Below, piece after piece: positions 2-61,157 of a stretch of 64,000 bases of DNA (positions within the stretch are counted from its first letter, which is position 1; each line of letters starts with the position of its first letter). Source of the DNA: a phage; sequence record PX880101.1. One strand, given 5' to 3'. Under the pieces are notes generated by a model, which worked only from the letters and a program-made list of their open reading frames with translations, was not told where the DNA came from and made no database searches. Both the position numbers and the translations under genes were made by a program.

Positions 2-1141
2 GTGTGGCAAGGTAAGAAAATTGAGTCCAGCCACACCATCTCTTTACTGATTTCTGAACTGGATTCCTCTGATAACCTACTTCAAGGTGGTGAAGAAGTT
101 TGGATCAGTATGGGCGATAAGCTGCTTAAACCGGGTCATCAAGACTCTGTCTCTGTTAAAATTGATGACAAGTGGGAAACCGTAACGCCAGGATGGATCG
201 TAAATATCCCTTTGAAGGCAAACGAGCATAACGGTAAGACCTACTACAAAGGCTCACTGGCTAAGATGGTTAAGCTGGGTGCAGGAGAGACTCCAGCAGC
301 GACTCAGCAGCAAAAACCGCAACAAGGTGCACAATCACAAGGCCAGAAGCAGAAACCTCAGCAGAATGCCAATCAGGACGTTTTACGCATCTATGGTGAT
401 GTGACTCAGATTGTTGGCAACGTGGTTACTGTTAATGACCACAAGATTGGCGAAGGTGCTATGGTTGTAACTGATGAGCAGCTTAAAGACCTGGTGGTAG
501 GTGGTCGTGTTGCAGCCATTGTTGACAAAGACACCGGAAACATTATCAGTGGTTTCAAAGCCTATCCTCCTAAGGCAGAGAACGGTACTCAAGGCTCTGG
601 TGGCAAGCGTAAATCCTCTTACGACCCTATCGGTGTGGAAACGGGGCATAGCATCAATGCGTTGCAAATCATCCTGGATCGCGGGTTTAAGGTAGACGAC
701 CCACTAGGAGTGGCTAAAACACTACACGTAGTCACTATTGAGCTTAAGAAAGAGTATGCTCAAGCCACCAACCGAACTGAAGATGAAGTAGGTGCCAGTG
801 TCGGTAATGCGGTGTTGAACGCTTGTCGCCGTATTGACAAGAAAACGAAAGTTGATGATTTTGCAGCGGCAATTACTGCAGAAGCAAAAGATGTCTTGAC
901 TAATCTGGCTGAGCCGTTGTACGATTGGATCAAGAACGGTGCTGGGTCAACTGACCATCAAGAACCTCAGGCTGCCAAACAGGAAGCAGCTCCACAGCAA
1001 AACACTGTAGACGCTCCTCCTGTAAATGATGGGGAAGATGACCCGATGGATCAGAATCCAGCACAGTATGACTTCTGTGATGACATACCTTTCGCTCCGG
1101 TAGGTCTGCAATATGGTAAAAGTAGAATCTACGCATTGTAA
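2..1141 (+). CDS. hypothetical protein, probably 5'-truncated at window edge; Gln/Pro-rich linker in middle
   Basis: Long ORF open to the window start; no recognisable catalytic motif. Confidence 0.5.
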
Positions 1142-1736
1142 GAGGTGCATCAAGTGCGGAGAGGTGAAAAACCTCTCCGAGTTCTACAAACATCCAAAGA
1201 TGGCTGACGGTCATCTTAATAAGTGCAAAGAGTGCTGTAAGAAGGCCAGCAGAGAGGCTGACCAGTTTTCCCACGACTCTTCAGAAAAAGGTGTAATACG
1301 CGTGCTGTACAAGGCTCAAAAGTGCAACAGCAAGCAAAGAGGTCACCCTCCTCCGACTTACACCAAAAAAGAGTTTAAGGAGTGGCTATACCTGAACGGT
1401 TACAAAGAGTTGTATGATCAGTGGGTAGCCAGCGGATACGACAAAAGGAAAAAGCCTTCTTGTGACAGGATAGATGATTTCAAAGGGTACTCTTTTGATA
1501 ATATCCGTTTAACAACCTGGGGAGAAAATAAAGACAAGCAGACGGAGGATATTCTGTTGCATAGAAGCACCAGCGGTAGACGGTGTAAAAATGTAAGGAG
1601 GCTGGACATGAATGGCAACGTTCTTAAAGAATGGGTATCCCACAATTCTTGTAGAAGAGAAACCGGAATATGTGTTGATTACTACATTCATGAAAAAATT
1701 CCAGCTCCCGATGGATACCTCTATGAATACTTTTAG
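1113..1736 (+). CDS. Cys-rich (zinc-ribbon-like) basic protein; start codon uncertain
   Basis: N-terminal CxxC...CxxC pattern (CKRCIKCG...CKECC); overlaps end of upstream ORF. Confidence 0.4.
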
Positions 1737-1751
1737 CACCTAACTGACATA

Positions 1752-1779
1752 GCCCTGCCCGAAAGGGTGGGGCATTTTT
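1752..1779 (+). terminator. putative intrinsic terminator
   Basis: GC hairpin ccctgccc-gaaa-gggtgggg followed by T-run. Confidence 0.5.
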
Positions 1780-1798
1780 GTATAAGGAGATCTGAAAA

Positions 1799-5289: not shown

Positions 5290-5790
5290 CTGGCATATCA
5301 AGTGTAAGGGGGATTTCTAAAATGGATTTCCTCCTTTTGATATTTCACCGGGCTGGATATTTTAAAATTCTTAGAAAATCAGAAAATGGATCGAAAACTA
5401 AAATGGATTTTTCAGAGTAGGCGCGACAAGCTGAATAACTCATCCTATCGTTTGCACCATATTCCAGGCCACCATTATAGATTTCCCACACATGCTAACC
5501 TCCCTCTACTAGAACTTCCTCCACTTGCCCTTAACCTTCTATGGTAACAATCTAACCACTATCTTGAAGTTGCGGTGCAGCTTTCCAAGTACTCGATCTA
5601 CTTTTCATTTCATGGCTTGGATTTTCTGAAAATTTTTCTCGATAAATTTCTCAGTACTCGATCTGTTTTTCGTTTTCTGAATCGGATTTTCTGGAAATCG
5701 TTCCGGATCTCGACCTGAAATTTTTGGGGACGAAATCGATTTTTCGTTTTCAGAAATGGATTTTTAAAATTTCTATATGGGAATATTTTA
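5290..5790. repeat. AT-rich iteron-like region (repeated aaaatggattt, ggattttctg, agtactcgatct, tttcgttttc units)
   Basis: Several short motifs each occur 2-4 times in direct orientation in an ORF-free stretch. Confidence 0.6.
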
Positions 5791-5879
5791 TGGGATACTG
5801 TTTTATAGGAAATTGTTACGGAGGGTAATTAGCATGCTAATTAAATTTATTAAATGCGAGGAGTTCTCATTTAGAATTT

Positions 5880-6100
5880 TGAATGATAATCATTCTCGTT
5901 TGCAGAATAACGGGCAGGCCCGGTGATTGTCTCCCGGCCCCTGTTGCCCCGGCTTGTTATTATAGTATCACACAGGACAAAGAAAGCAAGGATTTTTTGC
6001 ATAAATTTTTAAATGATAATGATAACCGTTCTCATTTTATGCAGCGCCCATCCCCGGTGGTTGTCTCCCCCGTCACCGGTGCCTGCCGTCCTTTCGATAG
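5880..6100. repeat. two tandem ~75 bp units sharing core GGTG(A/G)TTGTCTCCC
   Basis: Units beginning aatgataat...gcag...ccggtgattgtctccc occur twice in tandem; the ORF-track reading frame here is probably spurious. Confidence 0.6.
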
Positions 6101-6293
6101 GTATATTTTGCCACCTGGCGGGGCCGCTGTCAACACTTTTCAAAAAAAAATTTCTAACCTGATGCGCTGACCGCTGCAACCTGGCGGGGCCAGCCTGGCA
6201 GGGCCTAACTGACCAGGTAGGAGATAATGAAGGCTTGCAAACCTGGTGGGCCTATGCTATAGGATAGGTAACAATTGAAGAGGAGGTACAAAA

Positions 6294-7303: not shown

Positions 7304-7699
7304 ATGAATAAGAACGTACGCCGCATCATGAACGAACTGGCAAACGATGAAAAAATTATTGATATGCATTTGGTAAACATTTGCCGCCGTTGTGTAACAT
7401 ATAACAACCGCGCCGCAAAAGCGCGTGAGATGAACGCAAAAGGCACCTTAAAGCCCTTTCAGGTGGTTGTAAAATCTATAACCAGTGCAGCAGACCAGGC
7501 GCATGACCACAACAACGGGAGCACTAATATTGATCCGTCTTACGTAATGAAACGGATCCGGACTTGCAAGAATAAAGAGCAGGTGTATAACGTCATAGAT
7601 TGGTTGGACTCCCTGGGCGATGTGGTTTATAATAGGTTTTCTGCAGCTATCGAGATCCAGCTTGACAGACTGGACGGGAAAGTACTGAAAACTTACTAA
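7304..7699 (+). CDS. hypothetical protein
   Basis: ORF with promoter, leader hairpin and RBS. Confidence 0.55.
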   Translation: MNKNVRRIMNELANDEKIIDMHLVNICRRCVTYNNRAAKAREMNAKGTLKPFQVVVKSITSAADQAHDHNNGSTNIDPSYVMKRIRTCKNKEQVYNVIDWLDSLGDVVYNRFSAAIEIQLDRLDGKVLKTY

Positions 7700-7710
7700 G
7701 TTTATTTTTA

Positions 7711-7734
7711 GATGGCCTTGACGCCAGGGCCATC
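7711..7734 (+). promoter_or_regulatory. 24 bp palindrome GATGGCCTTGACGCCAGGGCCATC overlapping a -35 TTGAC (operator-like), copy 1
   Basis: 10 bp arms (9/10 match) around a 4 bp centre; near-identical 45 bp element repeated at 8330 and 12068. Confidence 0.5.
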
Positions 7735-7778
7735 AATAAAGTAAACTAATCCCAGTTAAGCTAAAAGGAGGCTTGAAG

Positions 7779-7976: not shown

Positions 7977-8318
7977 ATGACCACTATGACCGCCGCAGAA
8001 AAAGCTATTCAGATCGCTGCCCTGAAAAAACAGATCGCAGACCTTGAGAATAAGATCGATAACTTTGAAATCGACGAGGACAAGTACGACGAAAACTATG
8101 ATGAATGGTTAGACGAGATCTACGGCGAAATTATGATCGGAAACATTTCTTTTCTTCCGTCGCGTATCCTCAAGGAGCTAGATCCTATCGCTTACCGCTG
8201 CGGATTTAGCGACTACATCGACAGCCTGGATATTGAGGACGATGAAGAATACCAGGAATTACAGACAGAGTTGGAAGAAGCAAAAGAAGAGCTTGCGGAG
8301 CTGGAAGAAAACGAGTAA
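7977..8318 (+). CDS. hypothetical acidic coiled-coil protein
   Basis: ORF with aaaaggag RBS; Glu/Asp-rich. Confidence 0.55.
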   Translation: MTTMTAAEKAIQIAALKKQIADLENKIDNFEIDEDKYDENYDEWLDEIYGEIMIGNISFLPSRILKELDPIAYRCGFSDYIDSLDIEDDEEYQELQTELEEAKEELAELEENE

Positions 8319-8329
8319 GATTATTTTTA

Positions 8330-8353
8330 GATGGCCTTGACTCCAGGGCCATC
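8330..8353 (+). promoter_or_regulatory. 24 bp palindrome GATGGCCTTGACTCCAGGGCCATC, copy 2
   Basis: Same element as 7711, including the flanking ttatttttag...aataaagtaaact. Confidence 0.5.
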
Positions 8354-8407
8354 AATAAAGTAAACTTTATACTGTTAACACTGAACTAATGCATAGGAGT
8401 TAAAACC

Positions 8408-8653
8408 ATGGCAGCACTAATCACTAAATATTACGCCCCTACCAACACCAAAAGCGCCCGTATCATGGTAAAAGGCTTCGGACGTAAAAAGGTTTACACC
8501 TGGGATTATGCCTTAGACACGGAAGACAACTACACCAACGCGATGACAGATTTTATTAATGAGCTGAACACGCGGATCTTGACAAATTATAAAATTACCG
8601 ATATTGCCTATATAGGGGAAGGCGGGATCTGTTTTGTCGGTATCGTCAAATAA
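8408..8653 (+). CDS. hypothetical protein
   Basis: ORF with taggag RBS. Confidence 0.5.
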   Translation: MAALITKYYAPTNTKSARIMVKGFGRKKVYTWDYALDTEDNYTNAMTDFINELNTRILTNYKITDIAYIGEGGICFVGIVK

Positions 8654-8666
8654 ACTGTTTTTTCGG

Positions 8667-8688
8667 TGGTCCTGGTAGCAGGGCCATC
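8667..8688 (+). promoter_or_regulatory. divergent palindrome TGGTCCTGgtagCAGGGCCA, related to the GATGGCC element
   Basis: 8 bp inverted repeat, same position relative to the downstream gene. Confidence 0.4.
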
Positions 8689-8729
8689 TATAAAGATAGT
8701 TTATCAATACAATGAAAGGAGAAAGTAAC

Positions 8730-11854: not shown

Positions 11855-12055
11855 ATGAGCAACAATATCCGCGTTATTAACTTCAAAAAAGAAGAAAAAA
11901 TTGCCGTGCTGATTGACGGTCAAGAAATCTTCAAGGGCGACTATGAAGATCATCAAACGGCGATTAGTATCACTCGCGTGATTGGTTATCATAATTTCTA
12001 CCCCCAAGGCGCTGAGGCAGCAGTTAAACGAATCAAAGAGATTGTAGGCCTGTAA
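11855..12055 (+). CDS. hypothetical small protein
   Basis: ORF with promoter, hairpin cggggagctaatccccacc and aaaggag RBS. Confidence 0.5.
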   Translation: MSNNIRVINFKKEEKIAVLIDGQEIFKGDYEDHQTAISITRVIGYHNFYPQGAEAAVKRIKEIVGL

Positions 12056-12067
12056 AATTTATTTTTA

Positions 12068-12091
12068 GATGGCCTTGACTTCAGGGCCATC
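12068..12091 (+). promoter_or_regulatory. 24 bp palindrome GATGGCCTTGACTTCAGGGCCATC, copy 3
   Basis: Third copy of the 45 bp element. Confidence 0.5.
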
Positions 12092-12148
12092 GATAAAGTA
12101 AATTTAAACCCTGTTAAAATACCACGCAGTTAACAAGGAGTGATAGAC

Positions 12149-13292: not shown

Positions 13293-13347
13293 ACCTGGCG
13301 GGGCCGAAAAGGCCCCCAATTATGAAAATAAAGAGAGGCAAATCATC

Positions 13348-15597: not shown

Positions 15598-15651
15598 ATA
15601 AAAAGTGTTTTGGTACTGATTTTGGGGTTGACTTGTTCGGCCCCTTTTGCT

Positions 15652-15707
15652 ATTCTTATTAAACGGGCGGCACTTGGGAACAGGGGGAGACAATCACCAG
15701 GCCTGCC
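15652..15707 (-). repeat. inverted copy of the GGCAGGCC-GGTGATTGTCTCCC element seen at 5913-5958
   Basis: Reverse complement caggcaggcctggtgattgtctccccctgttccc closely matches gggcaggcccggtgattgtctcccggcccctgttgccc. Confidence 0.55.
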
Positions 15708-15816
15708 TGTCATATAAGAACTATAAAAACCGTTGACATCTGCCAGGGGGGTGGGGTAACATTTATCTTGAAGGGGCAAAGGTGCCCACACAACAACCAG
15801 AAGAGAGGAAAACACT

Positions 15817-17024: not shown

Positions 17025-17599
17025 TCTGTATTTCTCCTACCACAAACGGCCCAGCCTGGCAAGTGGAATAATTGACTAGCCATCAATCCCACACACTGTA
17101 CAAATATACATGGAAAATAACTATTGCATAATTTTTCATTGTGTGGTAGCAAGTCCATTTTTACCCGTTTTCTCTCTCAAAATTGCACGTAATGCCGCTA
17201 TTGCACAAATTTTAACCTGATGCACATCTCCAATATCTTGTCAACAACTAAAAATCTTTATAAGTCATACACTTACACAGCATCGAAAGCGTGTTCTACG
17301 CGAAAAATCGAGTATAACTATAGCCGCCAGATCTCAGAATTCACGTACGCACGCCATTCTATAGCCTGCAAAGTATTTATTCCAACCACAGAATAACGGA
17401 ATAGTCAATACCTGCATAAAATAATTATTCGTGTAAACTGCATAACATAAATCAGCTCAGGTGTCAACATTTTTCGTAAACAGTCCGAAATTATCACGAT
17501 GAGTTATCATAAACAGAGAAATCTTTAGTCGTCTAATGTTTACTGTACATTACTATACTGACTGGAATCATTAGATGACTAAGAGAAAGATAAGAAATA

Positions 17600-18020
17600 A
17601 TTAATAATGTAATTATTTTACCTGTAACAATAAGGCAACTATGCAAACGAATGGCATGGCGCGACGGAGTCGCGACATAATATAAAAGCAGTAACCATCA
17701 CCCCCGTGATAGTTTGTCTGCAATCTATTAATCAGATCATAGTTGCCTTGTATTCAGTTAATCATGACATAATAAGCAAGGCAACTATAGATCTGCTAAT
17801 AGTTGCCCTGCTTTTATATTATGTCATAGAAACACCCGAAGGGGTGACCAAAGGTCACCTGGCATGGCCAGTGAAAGATTATTAACTTGTTAATTGTTAA
17901 CTTGCTAATTGTTTTCATGCAAACGAATGTCATGGCTTATCCTATCTGTGTAAACAGTTAAGGTGTAAACTATCCAGGCGTAAACAGTCTATGCGGGAAC
18001 AATCTATACGTGAACAGTGA
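17600..18020. repeat. cluster of direct and inverted repeats
   Basis: AGGCAACTAT x4 in both orientations; catgcaaacgaatg(g/t)catggc x2; palindrome ggtgacc-aaa-ggtcacc; five copies of a G(T/C)GTAAACAG-like iteron between 17945 and 18015. Confidence 0.6.
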
Positions 18021-18629
18021 AACATGAAATAATAACAATCGTTATTGTGTCGAAAGTGTATAAGGTGTCATAGTATGTCAGACAAGTTTTTCTCCTCTTT
18101 GTCAAGTGCTGCATGAAAATTTACAAACTGGTATGGTAGCATTTTTGCGGCCCTGTTTACATTCAGTTGTGTATGTATAACCCTTGTTGTGTGGGCGTTT
18201 AGACGTCTGGACGGTTGGAAGTCTACAGGTCAATATCTAATCTATTGGCTGCTAACTATATCCCACACAAATAGTAAGAAATACAATTGTTATGTGAGTA
18301 AACGGTAACTCATGTTATCAATCCCTGTATGGATCGCCAGTGGTGCGCATAATGGGTATTATGTTAAATTGCCCGTAATGATAACTATTCTCACAATGAT
18401 AGGTATTCTCATTCACTCCCACAAGATAGGTTGCAAATGTTGTGCCACTGTGTGAACGGCCTCACCTATTAATTTGCCTCACTGCCTCGATATTTGAGAA
18501 TTGTTATAAGAATGAGAAGTATTCCCATTTCGTCCGCCTGGCAGCACTCCAGTCGCTACCGCTCATGACAGGGCAGAACTGGGTCCATTCAGATATTTCT
18601 GGCTGACTCTTCAGGTCTGTGTGGGAAAA

Positions 18630-18810
18630 GCCAACCTCTCCGGCGGGGCAGGGGTAGGTCAATTAAAAAATTTACGTGGTGTATGAAGAGCCCTTCAGGT
18701 AAGGCATGTATTATGGGATGAAACACCCTTCAGGCAATGATATTTGTGGGTGGGATATTTGCTGGAAAGCCAGATATGACGGGACTCCTGGCGGGGCAGG
18801 GGTAGTACAG
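18630..18810. repeat. direct repeats (ggcggggcaggggtag x2; cccttcagg x2)
   Basis: Two ~17 bp units about 148 bp apart, plus a second repeated unit between them. Confidence 0.55.
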
Positions 18811-19500
18811 ACAGGGGAAATATGGTGGATGTAGTTGGGTGGATTGATCAGGCAGGTAGAGTATGGAATATGTTACAAGTATGTTAAATATGGAGGATGA
18901 ATATCTGTAGGATTTGTGTGTAAAATCAAAGACTTAAGTGGTGTTGTGGTATTTTCTATAAATAATTCAAGTTTAATAGGTAATATTTGTCTCTATCCGC
19001 TTTGTGTGGTAAACAAATTCAGATGGTGTTGGTTTACAAGTGTATACATAATATACAAATTAAAGATACAAGAAACCCCCCTCCCCCTTCGGCTACCATT
19101 CACCTTTTCCTCTGACTGGTACTTAAACACTTATTCAGACTCTTCAGGTTATCACCCATATATCATATGGCAGTGACTGGTGTCCTCCGGCCCCTCTTTC
19201 GTCACCCGTCCGCTTCGCCATGCTAATGCCATAGCCAACGGTTCGGTTGTTCACCCTGTTCACTCAGGTGTATCTCCATACCCCTTCAAACCGAAGAGAA
19301 CAGAAAACCCGAATTACTCGGTAAAAGAAAAGAGAAGAACTTAATTTTATCAGGATAGGCAAGAATGTCAAGGCATGACTGCTCACTAAACAAGCAAACA
19401 GTCATGTGTGGAAGGTAAGTGATTGTGGTGGTAGGAAATTTAGTTGAAAGATGTGTTATAGGTGCGCTTCCAGCACTTTAGCCGGGCAGCTAATTGTGTG

Positions 19501-57822: not shown

Positions 57823-57896
57823 ACCAGTAAAAACTTAAATATCTGTACTATAAGGATTCGTATGTTTTATGTTCGCTCTAGAATAGAGGTCAGTAA

Positions 57897-57979
57897 CTGT
57901 CCGTGATACGGACACTACTGTCCGTCACGCGGACACATCTGCCCGTAATACGGACACTAACTGTCCGTGATACGGACAC
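57897..57979. repeat. four tandem ~19 bp units each containing inverted repeat GTCCGT-N-ACGGAC, ~21 bp period
   Basis: ctgtccgtgatacggacac at 57897, 57918 (variant), 57938 (variant), 57961. Confidence 0.7.
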
Positions 57980-60344: not shown

Positions 60345-60419
60345 GCCCTGTTAGCTTAGTGGATAAAGCAGCGGCCTTCTAAGCCGTTGACACTGGTTCG
60401 AGTCCAGTACGGGGTGCCA
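60345..60419 (+). tRNA. tRNA-Arg (anticodon TCT)
   Basis: Hand-folded cloverleaf: acceptor GCCCTGT/ACGGGGT with G-U pairs, loop CTTCTAA, T-loop TTCGAGT, encoded CCA. Confidence 0.75.
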
Positions 60420-60423
60420 AATT

Positions 60424-60510
60424 GGGGAGTTATCCCGTAGAGGTAGCGGTGTAGACTGTAAATCTATTGTCATTGCGACTCGGGTGGTTCGACTCCACCA
60501 CTCCCCACCA
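60424..60510 (+). tRNA. tRNA-Tyr (anticodon GTA)
   Basis: Acceptor GGGGAGT/ACTCCCC, loop CTGTAAA, long variable arm, T-loop TTCGACT, CCA. Confidence 0.8.
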
Positions 60511-60624
60511 AATTTATATTTTTAGATGCATAAATAATACAGATAATGGCATTGATATTTATCGTCGTTTATACTAGTCACTAACTGCTCGAAAATCAGT
60601 GTCATTATCAGTATAATTTATAAA

Positions 60625-60715
60625 GGAGGGTAGGGAGCAATGGTGCTCAAGCGGTCTTGAAAACCGTCCCGTTGGGTATGACTCGATGATGGTTCGATTC
60701 CATTACTCTCCGCCA
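60625..60715 (+). tRNA. tRNA-Ser (anticodon TGA)
   Basis: Acceptor GGAGGGT/ACTCTCC, loop CTTGAAA, long variable arm, T-loop TTCGATT, CCA. Confidence 0.7.
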
Positions 60716-60813
60716 CATTGTTGACCTTGTAATTAAGCGAAAGCCGGAAGCAGAACCGGATTATCAAATGTTACAGTCGTCATCGCCGACTAGCAACATG
60801 GTCAACATACTGA

Positions 60814-60912
60814 GCTAGGTAAGCCCTTTGGCAAGGGCGAGGATTTTTAATCCTGAAAATAGACGAGGTAGTAGTTGAATACATAGGTGGTTCGATTCCA
60901 TCACCTAGCACC
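60814..60912 (+). tRNA. aberrant tRNA-like element (possible Lys-TTT loop) with ~29 nt insertion before the T-arm
   Basis: Perfect acceptor GCTAGGT/ACCTAGC, D-arm GCCC-TTTGGCAA-GGGC, T-loop GGTTCGATTCC, but oversized variable region and imperfect anticodon stem; no encoded CCA. Confidence 0.35.
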
Positions 60913-60917
60913 TTTTT

Positions 60918-60993
60918 GCTGATGTAGCACAATCGGTAGTGCAATTGATTTGTAATCAATAGGTTGTAGGTTCAAGTCCTGCCATCAGCACCA
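60918..60993 (+). tRNA. tRNA-Thr (anticodon TGT)
   Basis: Acceptor GCTGATG/CATCAGC, D-arm GCAC/GTGC, loop TTTGTAA, T-loop TTCAAGT, CCA. Confidence 0.8.
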
Positions 60994-60994
60994 A

Positions 60995-61069
60995 GGCCCT
61001 GTAGCTGGAAGGTTCAAGCAAGCGACTCATAATCGCCAGACGGTGGTTCAATTCCACCCAGGGCCACCA
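60995..61069 (+). tRNA. tRNA-Met (anticodon CAT; could be Ile-lysidine type)
   Basis: Acceptor GGCCCTG/CAGGGCC, loop CTCATAA, T-loop TTCAATT, CCA; no initiator-type features. Confidence 0.7.
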
Positions 61070-61080
61070 AATAATAAATA

Positions 61081-61157
61081 CTCCGCGTAGCTCAGCTTGG
61101 TAGAGCGCCTGATTTGGGATCAGGAGGTCGAGTGTTCGAATCACTCCGTGGAGACCA
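61081..61157 (+). tRNA. tRNA-Pro (anticodon TGG)
   Basis: Acceptor CTCCGCG/CGTGGAG (C1:G72), D-arm GCTC/GAGC, loop TTTGGGA, T-loop TTCGAAT, CCA. Confidence 0.75.

Follow-up and report, generated by a model that had tools for sequence, protein, structure and literature searches.

The 64,000-nt stretch of phage DNA analysed here (sequence record PX880101.1), referred to below as the window, was identified by sequence comparison as belonging to an rV5-like virulent myovirus of the genus Vequintavirus, and its region of interest is 99.5% identical to that of Escherichia phages A6-1 and MaxTheCat. A non-coding stretch of approximately 870 bp (about 5420–6293) holds two similar units, unit 1 and unit 2, a third copy of which lies in inverted orientation at 15.69 kb, and to the right of this stretch a long array of small plus-strand early genes extends to about 17.4 kb. 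The rV5 genome paper had drawn a 'non-coding' box on its genome map and described no element within that box. Our analysis identified a conserved, putative control cassette in this early region of rV5-like virulent phages, in which near-consensus operators for the iron-responsive host regulator Fur are joined to a promoter-driven, GC-rich module.

Both units and the inverted copy were found where the original prediction had placed them, with a similarity above chance. Their 14-mer core, GGTGATTGTCTCCC, occurs on the plus strand at 5922 and, with one mismatch, at 6056, and on the minus strand at 15685, where 0.41 such matches would be expected by chance at up to two mismatches. The inverted match between 5907–5935 and 15685–15713 extends over 29 nt at 90% identity, a kind of pair expected approximately 7e-4 times in 64 kb. 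The sequence that opens each unit, AATGATAANNATTCTC, was found five times, always on the plus strand (5882, 6018, 18377, 18395 and 18511), against 0.87 expected occurrences, and five matches were reached in 0 of 100 shuffles. The units had been described as tandem repeats of ~75 bp; two similar units do exist (52 of 90 aligned columns identical) but they form no head-to-tail array, their Fur boxes being 136 bp apart, and Tandem Repeats Finder reported no array covering 5880–6100 with the minimum score lowered to 30. Nor does the inverted copy flank the small-gene array as had been proposed, the array extending to about 17.4 kb. Similarity searching of phage genomes, which the original prediction had recommended, showed that unit 1 is kept in the non-coding DNA of 251 phage records, and the units gave no match at E ≤ 1 among 5,426 E. 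coli genomes.

The starts of the units (aatgataat...ttctc) are, judged by their sequence, host Fur boxes, and the suggestion that the elements include protein-binding sites is strongly supported at the level of a sequence motif, as these starts score above genuine E. coli Fur sites. A Fur-box weight matrix was built from 41 distinct palindromes of relatives only, with no window sequences included (consensus AATGAGAATCATTCTCATT), and was used at a threshold of 12 bits. Exactly six sites in the 64-kb window reached this threshold, at 5853, 5882, 6018, 18377, 18395 and 18511 (16.8–24.8 bits), in comparison to 0.42 matches in simulated sequences, and all six fall within two large non-coding regions. 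Comparison with the classical Fur consensus GATAATGATAATCATTATC (7-1-7 form TGATAATnATTATCA) showed agreement at 16 of 19 bases in 6015–6033, with 0.02 such matches expected. As a control, the phage-derived matrix was scanned against 28 kb of E. coli MG1655 (606000–634000) around the enterobactin genes, where every match of at least 12 bits lay in the fepA|fes, fepD|entS or fepB|entC intergenic regions, divergent promoter regions that are textbook Fur targets; the next best score in these 28 kb with the first matrix was 6.8 bits. The phage boxes outscored the host sites, reaching up to 30 bits in comparison to at most 19.4 bits for the E. coli ent/fep sites.

Three of the window boxes belong to the stretch that holds the units. 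Box F1 (AATGCGAGGAGTTCTCATT, 5853..5871, 17.4 bits) is located 29 bp from box F2 (AATGATAATCATTCTCGTT, 5882..5900, 24.8 bits), a spacing also seen in the arrays of phages KaOmega and phAPEC8; F2 matches AATGATAANNATTCTC exactly and forms the start of unit 1, and F3 (AATGATAACCGTTCTCATT, 6018..6036, 23.9 bits) forms the start of unit 2. The remaining boxes make up a second cluster (18377–18395, 18395–18413 and 18511–18529, with 16.8, 20.4 and 18.2 bits), and KaOmega and CR8 have five to six boxes at the equivalent place. Relatives carry 10–13 boxes in about 15 kb, as arrays of up to four boxes with a 29-bp period plus a second cluster. A Fur box also precedes the unit in Shewanella phages, which keep the box together with part of the module. 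The exact palindrome TTGAATGAGAATCATTCTC was additionally found in unrelated viral contigs (IMG/VR L045, L046, L053 and L065), adjoining several DnaA boxes (TTATCCACA), and these contigs look like origin regions carrying Fur boxes. The second cluster of the window lies in a 2-kb non-coding stretch (17400–19450) that also contains 15-bp tandem repeats (17878–18018) and coincides with the cumulative GC-skew maximum; a promoter scan of the non-coding region around this cluster yielded no more promoter-like sites than were found in shuffles.

The module joined to these boxes is a GC-rich segment of ~30 nt (GGAGACAAWCACCGGnnCTGCCCGYTATTC), which on the strand read in the original prediction appears as GAATARCGGGCAGSYCCGGTGWTTGTCTCC at a fixed distance after the Fur box. 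In unit 1 it occupies 5905..5935, where the minus strand reads GGGAGACAATCACCGGGCCTGCCCGTTATTC and contains the core, and the fixed distance to the Fur box is retained in seven Vequintavirinae genera and in phAPEC8. Among the genera in which unit 1 was recorded are Vequintavirus, Certrevirus, Seunavirus, Mydovirus, Henunavirus, Avunavirus and Phapecoctavirus. The unit 2 element (6041..6089, minus strand reading ACGGCAGGCACCGGTGACGGGGGAGACAACCACCGGGG...) is a whole-length homologue of the copy at 15.69 kb, with 71 of 110 aligned columns identical to 15628–15720, promoter included. This third copy, termed site 2 (ACGGGCGGCACTTGGGAACAGGGGGAGACAATCACCAGGCCTGCCTGT, 15663..15710, plus strand), is conserved about 7–10.7 kb from unit 1 in Vequintavirus, Certrevirus, Seunavirus, Mydovirus and Phapecoctavirus, and no site 2 was found in the 15.5 kb of Av-05 that were searched. 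Viewed in this direction, each of the three copies in the window has its promoter-like site ahead of the module, with a Fur box after the module in units 1 and 2 and, in other genera only, after site 2. On sequence grounds the three copies are paralogues: the inverted match is real, but because the promoter-like sites of units 1 and 2 lie on the minus strand and that of the 15.69-kb copy lies on the plus strand, the latter is a third paralogue with its own promoter-like site and not simply a target. In other genera (L003–L007 at about 1650–1790; L052 at 1925–2045) 'unit 2' is a longer conserved element without a Fur box, ...CCGGCGATCCACCTTCC...GTTAGCCCCGCCTTTTCGCCGTGGGGTGGCG, positioned behind a strong minus-strand promoter-like site, and it is probably a separate small RNA with a predicted length of ~110–150 nt.

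Promoter-like sites precede each copy of the module. The leftward site of unit 1 (5959..5989, minus strand) consists of TTGCTT (5989–5984), a 19-nt spacer and TATAAT (5964–5959), and leftward sites of unit 1 were also recognised by eye in CR8, GEC_vB_MG and phAPEC8. The leftward site of unit 2 (6105..6133, minus strand; TTGACA-17-CAAAAT with TG) scored 10/12 in the promoter scan, which also reported minus-strand sites for units 1 and 2 in KaOmega (723..695 and 885..857), Mydo (1628..1600 and 1788..1760) and Hena1 (1617..1589 and 1769..1740), and for unit 2 in Av-05, where the consensus is matched at 12/12. Site 2 has a scan-reported plus-strand site (15628..15656; TTGACT-17-TATTCT) that sits within a terminator-like hairpin belonging to the upstream gene, and by eye its equivalents are present in KaOmega, CR8, GEC_vB_MG, Mydo and phAPEC8. 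The features sought for sigma-70 recognition, namely the hexamers, a 16–18 bp spacer, a retained position and a diverging spacer sequence, were found for the leftward sites, apart from the 19-nt spacer of unit 1 in the window, and for site 2. The hexamers are retained from genus to genus, the -10 element having A at its second position and T at its sixth, while the spacers are unrelated, which is the signature of real promoters. The original prediction that the elements may be small RNA (sRNA) genes is plausible, but the best-conserved promoter-like sites of units 1 and 2 are directed opposite to the strand on which it had read them. A weak terminator-like hairpin with a T-rich tail (GCAAAAAATCCTTGC, 5986..6000, minus strand) overlaps the -35 element of the unit 1 leftward site and is possibly the 3' end of the predicted unit 2 RNA; a minus-strand terminator was reported by the scan at the same relative place in KaOmega.

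The combination of Fur boxes and module suggests that the phage may read or manipulate the iron status of its host. We tentatively interpret the window copies as predicted sRNAs or 5' leaders gated by Fur, with a confidence that falls somewhat short of even. Host RNA polymerase would make short RNAs or leaders that begin with the module, with units 1 and 2 transcribed leftward, against the gene array, from predicted starts close to 5952 and 6098, and site 2 transcribed rightward from a predicted start close to 15663. Iron-loaded Fur, if it occupies these boxes in vivo, would be bound 5–45 bp past the module and would block or repress further transcription, and by such a roadblock the length or amount of the module RNAs would then track host iron status.

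A number of observations weigh against this interpretation. A Fur box 45–95 bp downstream of the start site is unusual, as classical Fur operators overlap the promoter, and the leftward transcripts predicted from units 1 and 2 reach no obvious gene. In the matrix scan site 2 of Vequintavirus lacks a Fur box, and the unit 1 leftward site of the window fails the scan criteria with its long 19-nt spacer. Tests of RNA structure were likewise unfavourable. Every copy can fold as a hairpin with GAGACAAnCACC in or near the loop (loop sequence of the module, GAGACAATCACC), but folding energies are ordinary in comparison to shuffles (z-scores -2.5 to +0.5), the hairpin-capable segment of unit 1 (5912..5950, minus strand) being no more stable than its shuffles at z = -0.49. 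RNAalifold returned no consensus structure from a MAFFT alignment of 17 copies, the folding energies of 29 copies showed no strand preference (10:7 and 6:6), and ungapped arm complementarity (119) was no better than in shuffles (115.8 +/- 3.0). As no statistical test supports the hairpin, it is treated here as a potential only. Lastly, the scan of Av-05 reported a rightward promoter-like site overlapped by the Fur box (TTGAAT-18-TAGAAT, 9/12) and, some 60 nt beyond it, a terminator-like site in the same direction. This Av-05 arrangement of a box-overlapped promoter, ~80 nt and a terminator is the canonical layout predicted for an sRNA gene.

Alternatively, the orientation read in the original prediction may be the working one. 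A candidate rightward promoter (TTGAAT-18-CAGAAT, 5879..5908, plus strand), which matches at 8/12 as read from the sequence, overlaps Fur box F2; Fur would repress it, and under low iron it would yield an RNA starting near AACGGGCAGG that acts as an iron-triggered sense/antisense switch. The first ~30 nt and the loop of this RNA would be complementary in cis to the leftward RNA of the same unit and in trans to the site 2 leader, to which a rightward RNA of unit 2 would be complementary as well. In favour of such a switch, the box fills the interval between the -35 and -10 elements, as in classical Fur regulation, and its distance from the module is the same in every genus; A/T tracts occur just upstream of TTGAAT in several lineages. 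The hairpin stem of Av-05 (AGCCG/CGGCT) is replaced by TGACG/CGTCA in Shewanella phage 1/40, amounting to two compensatory changes. The predicted duplex of unit 1 RNA with site 2 reaches -53.7 kcal/mol, in comparison to a background of -13.6 +/- 4.8 and -36 for the next best site, and SYGMH1 and an IMG/VR Certrevirus contig show perfect complementarity over 29–31 nt. Complementarity between unit 1 and site 2 exists by construction.

The conservation expected of such a rightward promoter is poor, however, as the -11 base of the supposed -10 element varies among A, T, G and C (CAGAAT, CTGAAT, CGGAAT, CTAAAT, CCAAAT) and the site fails the scan outside Av-05, falling below reporting in the window, KaOmega, Mydo and Hena1. 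No plus-strand terminator-like site was found after either unit of the window or, in KaOmega, after unit 1; Av-05 has one. Allele typing bears on both sides of the question. Unit 1 shows a GG/CC dimorphism, found in 28 records, and the GG-to-CC variant often travels with a matching change in site 2. Strict covariation of the two sites was nevertheless rejected, since mismatched combinations are frequent (for example in EduardKellenberger, V18, Gotham, CM1 and CR8), in phAPEC8 and Mydo each of the two copies has changed independently of the other, and Av-05 has no site 2 in the part searched; the association could therefore reflect linkage or gene conversion and not selection for pairing. Taken with these results, an iron-triggered antisense switch is rather unlikely.

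A further possibility is that the boxes act mainly as a decoy, with hundreds of replicating genomes, each carrying 6–13 very strong boxes, titrating Fur; the Fur titration assay rests on the same principle. The host iron-uptake and RyhB regulon would then be derepressed to the benefit of the phage, and the module and promoter-like sites would serve a separate function. Boxes that are more numerous and closer to the consensus than one promoter needs, as judged by the scores given above for phage and ent/fep sites, are consistent with titration, as are the 29-bp periodic arrays of up to four boxes with their second cluster and the conservation of the boxes among phages whose hosts have the gamma-proteobacterial Fur box in common. 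Conversely, the spacing between box and module in unit 1 does not vary by a single base pair from genus to genus, which speaks for a link with local transcription, and the E. coli phages have only six boxes in the window. Derepression would also have to pay off within one lytic cycle, and we regard a predominantly decoy function as improbable.

It is very improbable that the palindromes are instead operators of a phage-encoded DNA-binding protein that resemble Fur boxes by chance. Small systematic departures from the E. coli consensus (TGAGAAT instead of TGATAAT) and the phage-specific 29-bp period would suit such a protein. Against it, the phage-derived matrix recognises the known ent/fep Fur sites and nothing else in 28 kb, and the occurrence of the same palindrome in Shewanella phages and in unrelated viral contigs is easier to reconcile with a conserved host protein than with one specific to the phage. 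Pfam searches with ten early-region proteins returned no Fur-like, other DNA-binding or informative hit, the rest of the genome not having been screened.

A role at the DNA level, either as a transcription-primed replication origin as in T7 or T4 or as hairpin sites for priming or recombination, would accommodate the mutual inversion of the copies, the leftward aim of the tandem promoter-like sites, which face an AT-rich non-coding stretch containing A/T tracts and three 65-bp repeats, and the DnaA boxes that adjoin Fur palindromes in unrelated viral contigs, but it has very little likelihood given that GC skew has no turning point at 5.9 kb (its extremes lie near 19–20 kb and 56 kb), that the genomes compared show no rearrangement between the inverted copies and that no replication protein is linked to the site. 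The recombination hot spots offered by the original prediction likewise found no support; matching variants do occur in both copies in some phages, and gene conversion could explain them.

Returning to Fur-gated sRNAs or leaders, comparison with described systems places the operators close to those of E. coli. The fepA-fes, fepD-entS and fepB-entC operators and that of aerobactin iucA share with the phage boxes the same palindrome, adjacent boxes, a non-coding location and promoter-like sites on both strands, and the ent/fep sites are cross-recognised by the phage-derived matrix. Unlike these operators, the phage boxes reside in a virulent genome with no iron-related gene recognised alongside (Pfam, ten early proteins), score higher, form 29-bp arrays and, for the best-conserved promoter-like sites, lie downstream of the start. 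RyhB, PrrF, NrrF and HrrF resemble the cassette in that a Fur box adjoins a short non-coding, possibly structured unit, and Av-05 has the same layout. The phage units differ from RyhB/PrrF-type RNAs in having no Rfam match (PrrF, E = 7.2, 15 bits against a gathering score of 90), no homologue in the E. coli genomes searched, an uncertain strand and, in most genera, no terminator. Rfam searches of the whole window at the gathering score, and of the region and KaOmega at E ≤ 10, returned only tRNAs and noise. The predicted RNA part thus appears to belong to no described family and, except in Av-05, fails the terminator and homology criteria of Fur-regulated sRNAs.

Similarities to antisense and antitermination systems are more partial. 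Facing promoter-like sites ~45–55 bp apart, hairpin potential and possible trans copies recall RNA-IN/RNA-OUT of IS10 and CopA/CopT of plasmid R1, but here one facing site is well conserved and the other weak, no regulated gene has been identified and pairing is predicted only. The nutL/nutR sites of lambda and putL/putR of HK022 are also oppositely oriented paralogues that directly follow early promoter-like sites and contain a loop-like motif, GAGACAAnCACC in the present case; neither boxA/boxB nor the two-stem architecture of put was seen in the sequences read here, no genes lie ahead of the leftward copies, and the association with Fur boxes has no counterpart in nut or put. Fur-controlled cargo is known from temperate phages, of which stx1 is one gene. 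Another is sitABCD of lambdoid coliphages (PMC6969025). In both cases a host Fur box within a phage genome couples expression to iron, as may occur here, but those boxes drive a recognisable cargo operon, whereas the present arrays lie in early control regions of strictly virulent phages and have no cargo. PhiTE, an rV5-like phage, encodes a pseudo-ToxI non-coding RNA (PMC3475682), which is an intergenic non-coding RNA locus in the same phage group but maps to a different locus, at 106.7 kb of PhiTE. Mimicry of ToxI by the units was considered and rejected, as the PhiTE stretch holding units 1 and 2 has no 36-nt ToxI-like repeat; the first 15 nt of the ToxI repeat gave no match there at up to three mismatches. 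Targeting of phage ribosome-binding sites, to which the core bears a resemblance (GGAGAAAACACCATG), was also rejected, a duplex scan of the first 20 kb having given site 2 as the sole outlier.

The literature library searched yielded nothing on Fur boxes or small RNAs of rV5-like or other virulent phages, and no paper in it describes Fur control for the early control regions of virulent phages. It is possible, although we consider it closer to one chance in three than to an even one, that the strictly virulent phages of the Vequintavirinae and Stephanstirmvirinae, whose hosts range from E. coli to Shewanella, are as a lineage wired to host Fur through arrays of super-consensus boxes joined to a hitherto undescribed small-RNA family, by which they would sense iron or soak up Fur. 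If this is true, the phage would either sense host iron, through early transcription or an antisense switch, or soak up Fur and so derepress host iron uptake. The module would then represent a new family of non-coding RNAs, counting hundreds of members among sequenced phages. Iron is limiting in the gut and in infected tissue, and the in vivo performance of rV5-like phages would be affected if infection depends on Fur or iron; such a dependence would also offer a simple, testable case in which a lytic phage responds to a metabolic signal of its host. These phages have a broad host range (PMC6969025) and are under study for therapy and biocontrol.

Several further features of the region were recorded. 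The original prediction had noted recurring CCTGGCGGGGCC motifs nearby, and this recurrence is real (CCTGGCGGGGC at 6114, 6180, 6194 with one mismatch, 13294 and 18787; five seen against 0.37 expected), but the motifs do not belong to the element that forms the units. At 6114 the motif falls inside the spacer of the leftward unit 2 promoter-like site, and at 13294 it is one arm of a hairpin, GGGGCCgaaaaGGCCCC; the CCTGGCGGGGCC motifs are GC-rich promoter spacers and hairpin arms that are separate from the units. Similar GC-rich spacers occur in the early promoter-like sites of this phage, often nested in terminator-like hairpins. A 51-nt repeat family located between small early genes (7697–7747, 8316–8366, 8651–8701 and 12054–12104) comprises a GC hairpin, whose loop contains TTGAC, and after it a T-run and TAAACT; these repeats look like combined terminator-plus-promoter cassettes. 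Within the same non-coding region as the units, just left of the Fur boxes, three direct repeats of ~65 bp (5579–5764) are 74–76% identical.

An open reading frame (ORF) of 95 codons (5883–6170) spans both units and is annotated as a hypothetical protein in several GenBank records. A protein-coding reading was rejected: because its start lies inside Fur box F2 and it is frameshifted in rV5_ev147, the ORF is probably spurious and an annotation artefact. In some relatives the interval from unit 2 to the early genes contains a small ORF on the minus strand (7475–7756 in PhiTE, L064; 1808–1993 in Mydo, L005), of which that of Mydo encodes a DUF7170 protein and that of PhiTE is without a Pfam hit, and leftward transcription here therefore has a coding counterpart in some genera. 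Between 17 and 22 GenBank records of the MG0656xx series named 'Campylobacter phage' are 95–98% identical to the E. coli rV5-like region, and their host labels are probably wrong.

Elsewhere in the window, four copies of a 21-bp tandem repeat (ACTGTCCGTGATACGGACACT) containing the palindrome GTCCGTnnnACGGAC are found at 57896–57979, close to where the cumulative GC skew reaches its minimum, and have the look of an operator or origin. A tRNA cluster at 60345–61157 comprises seven ARAGORN calls, one of which (60814–60912) is 99 nt long with the four-base anticodon 'atcc' and scores 35.5 bits against the Rfam tRNA model.

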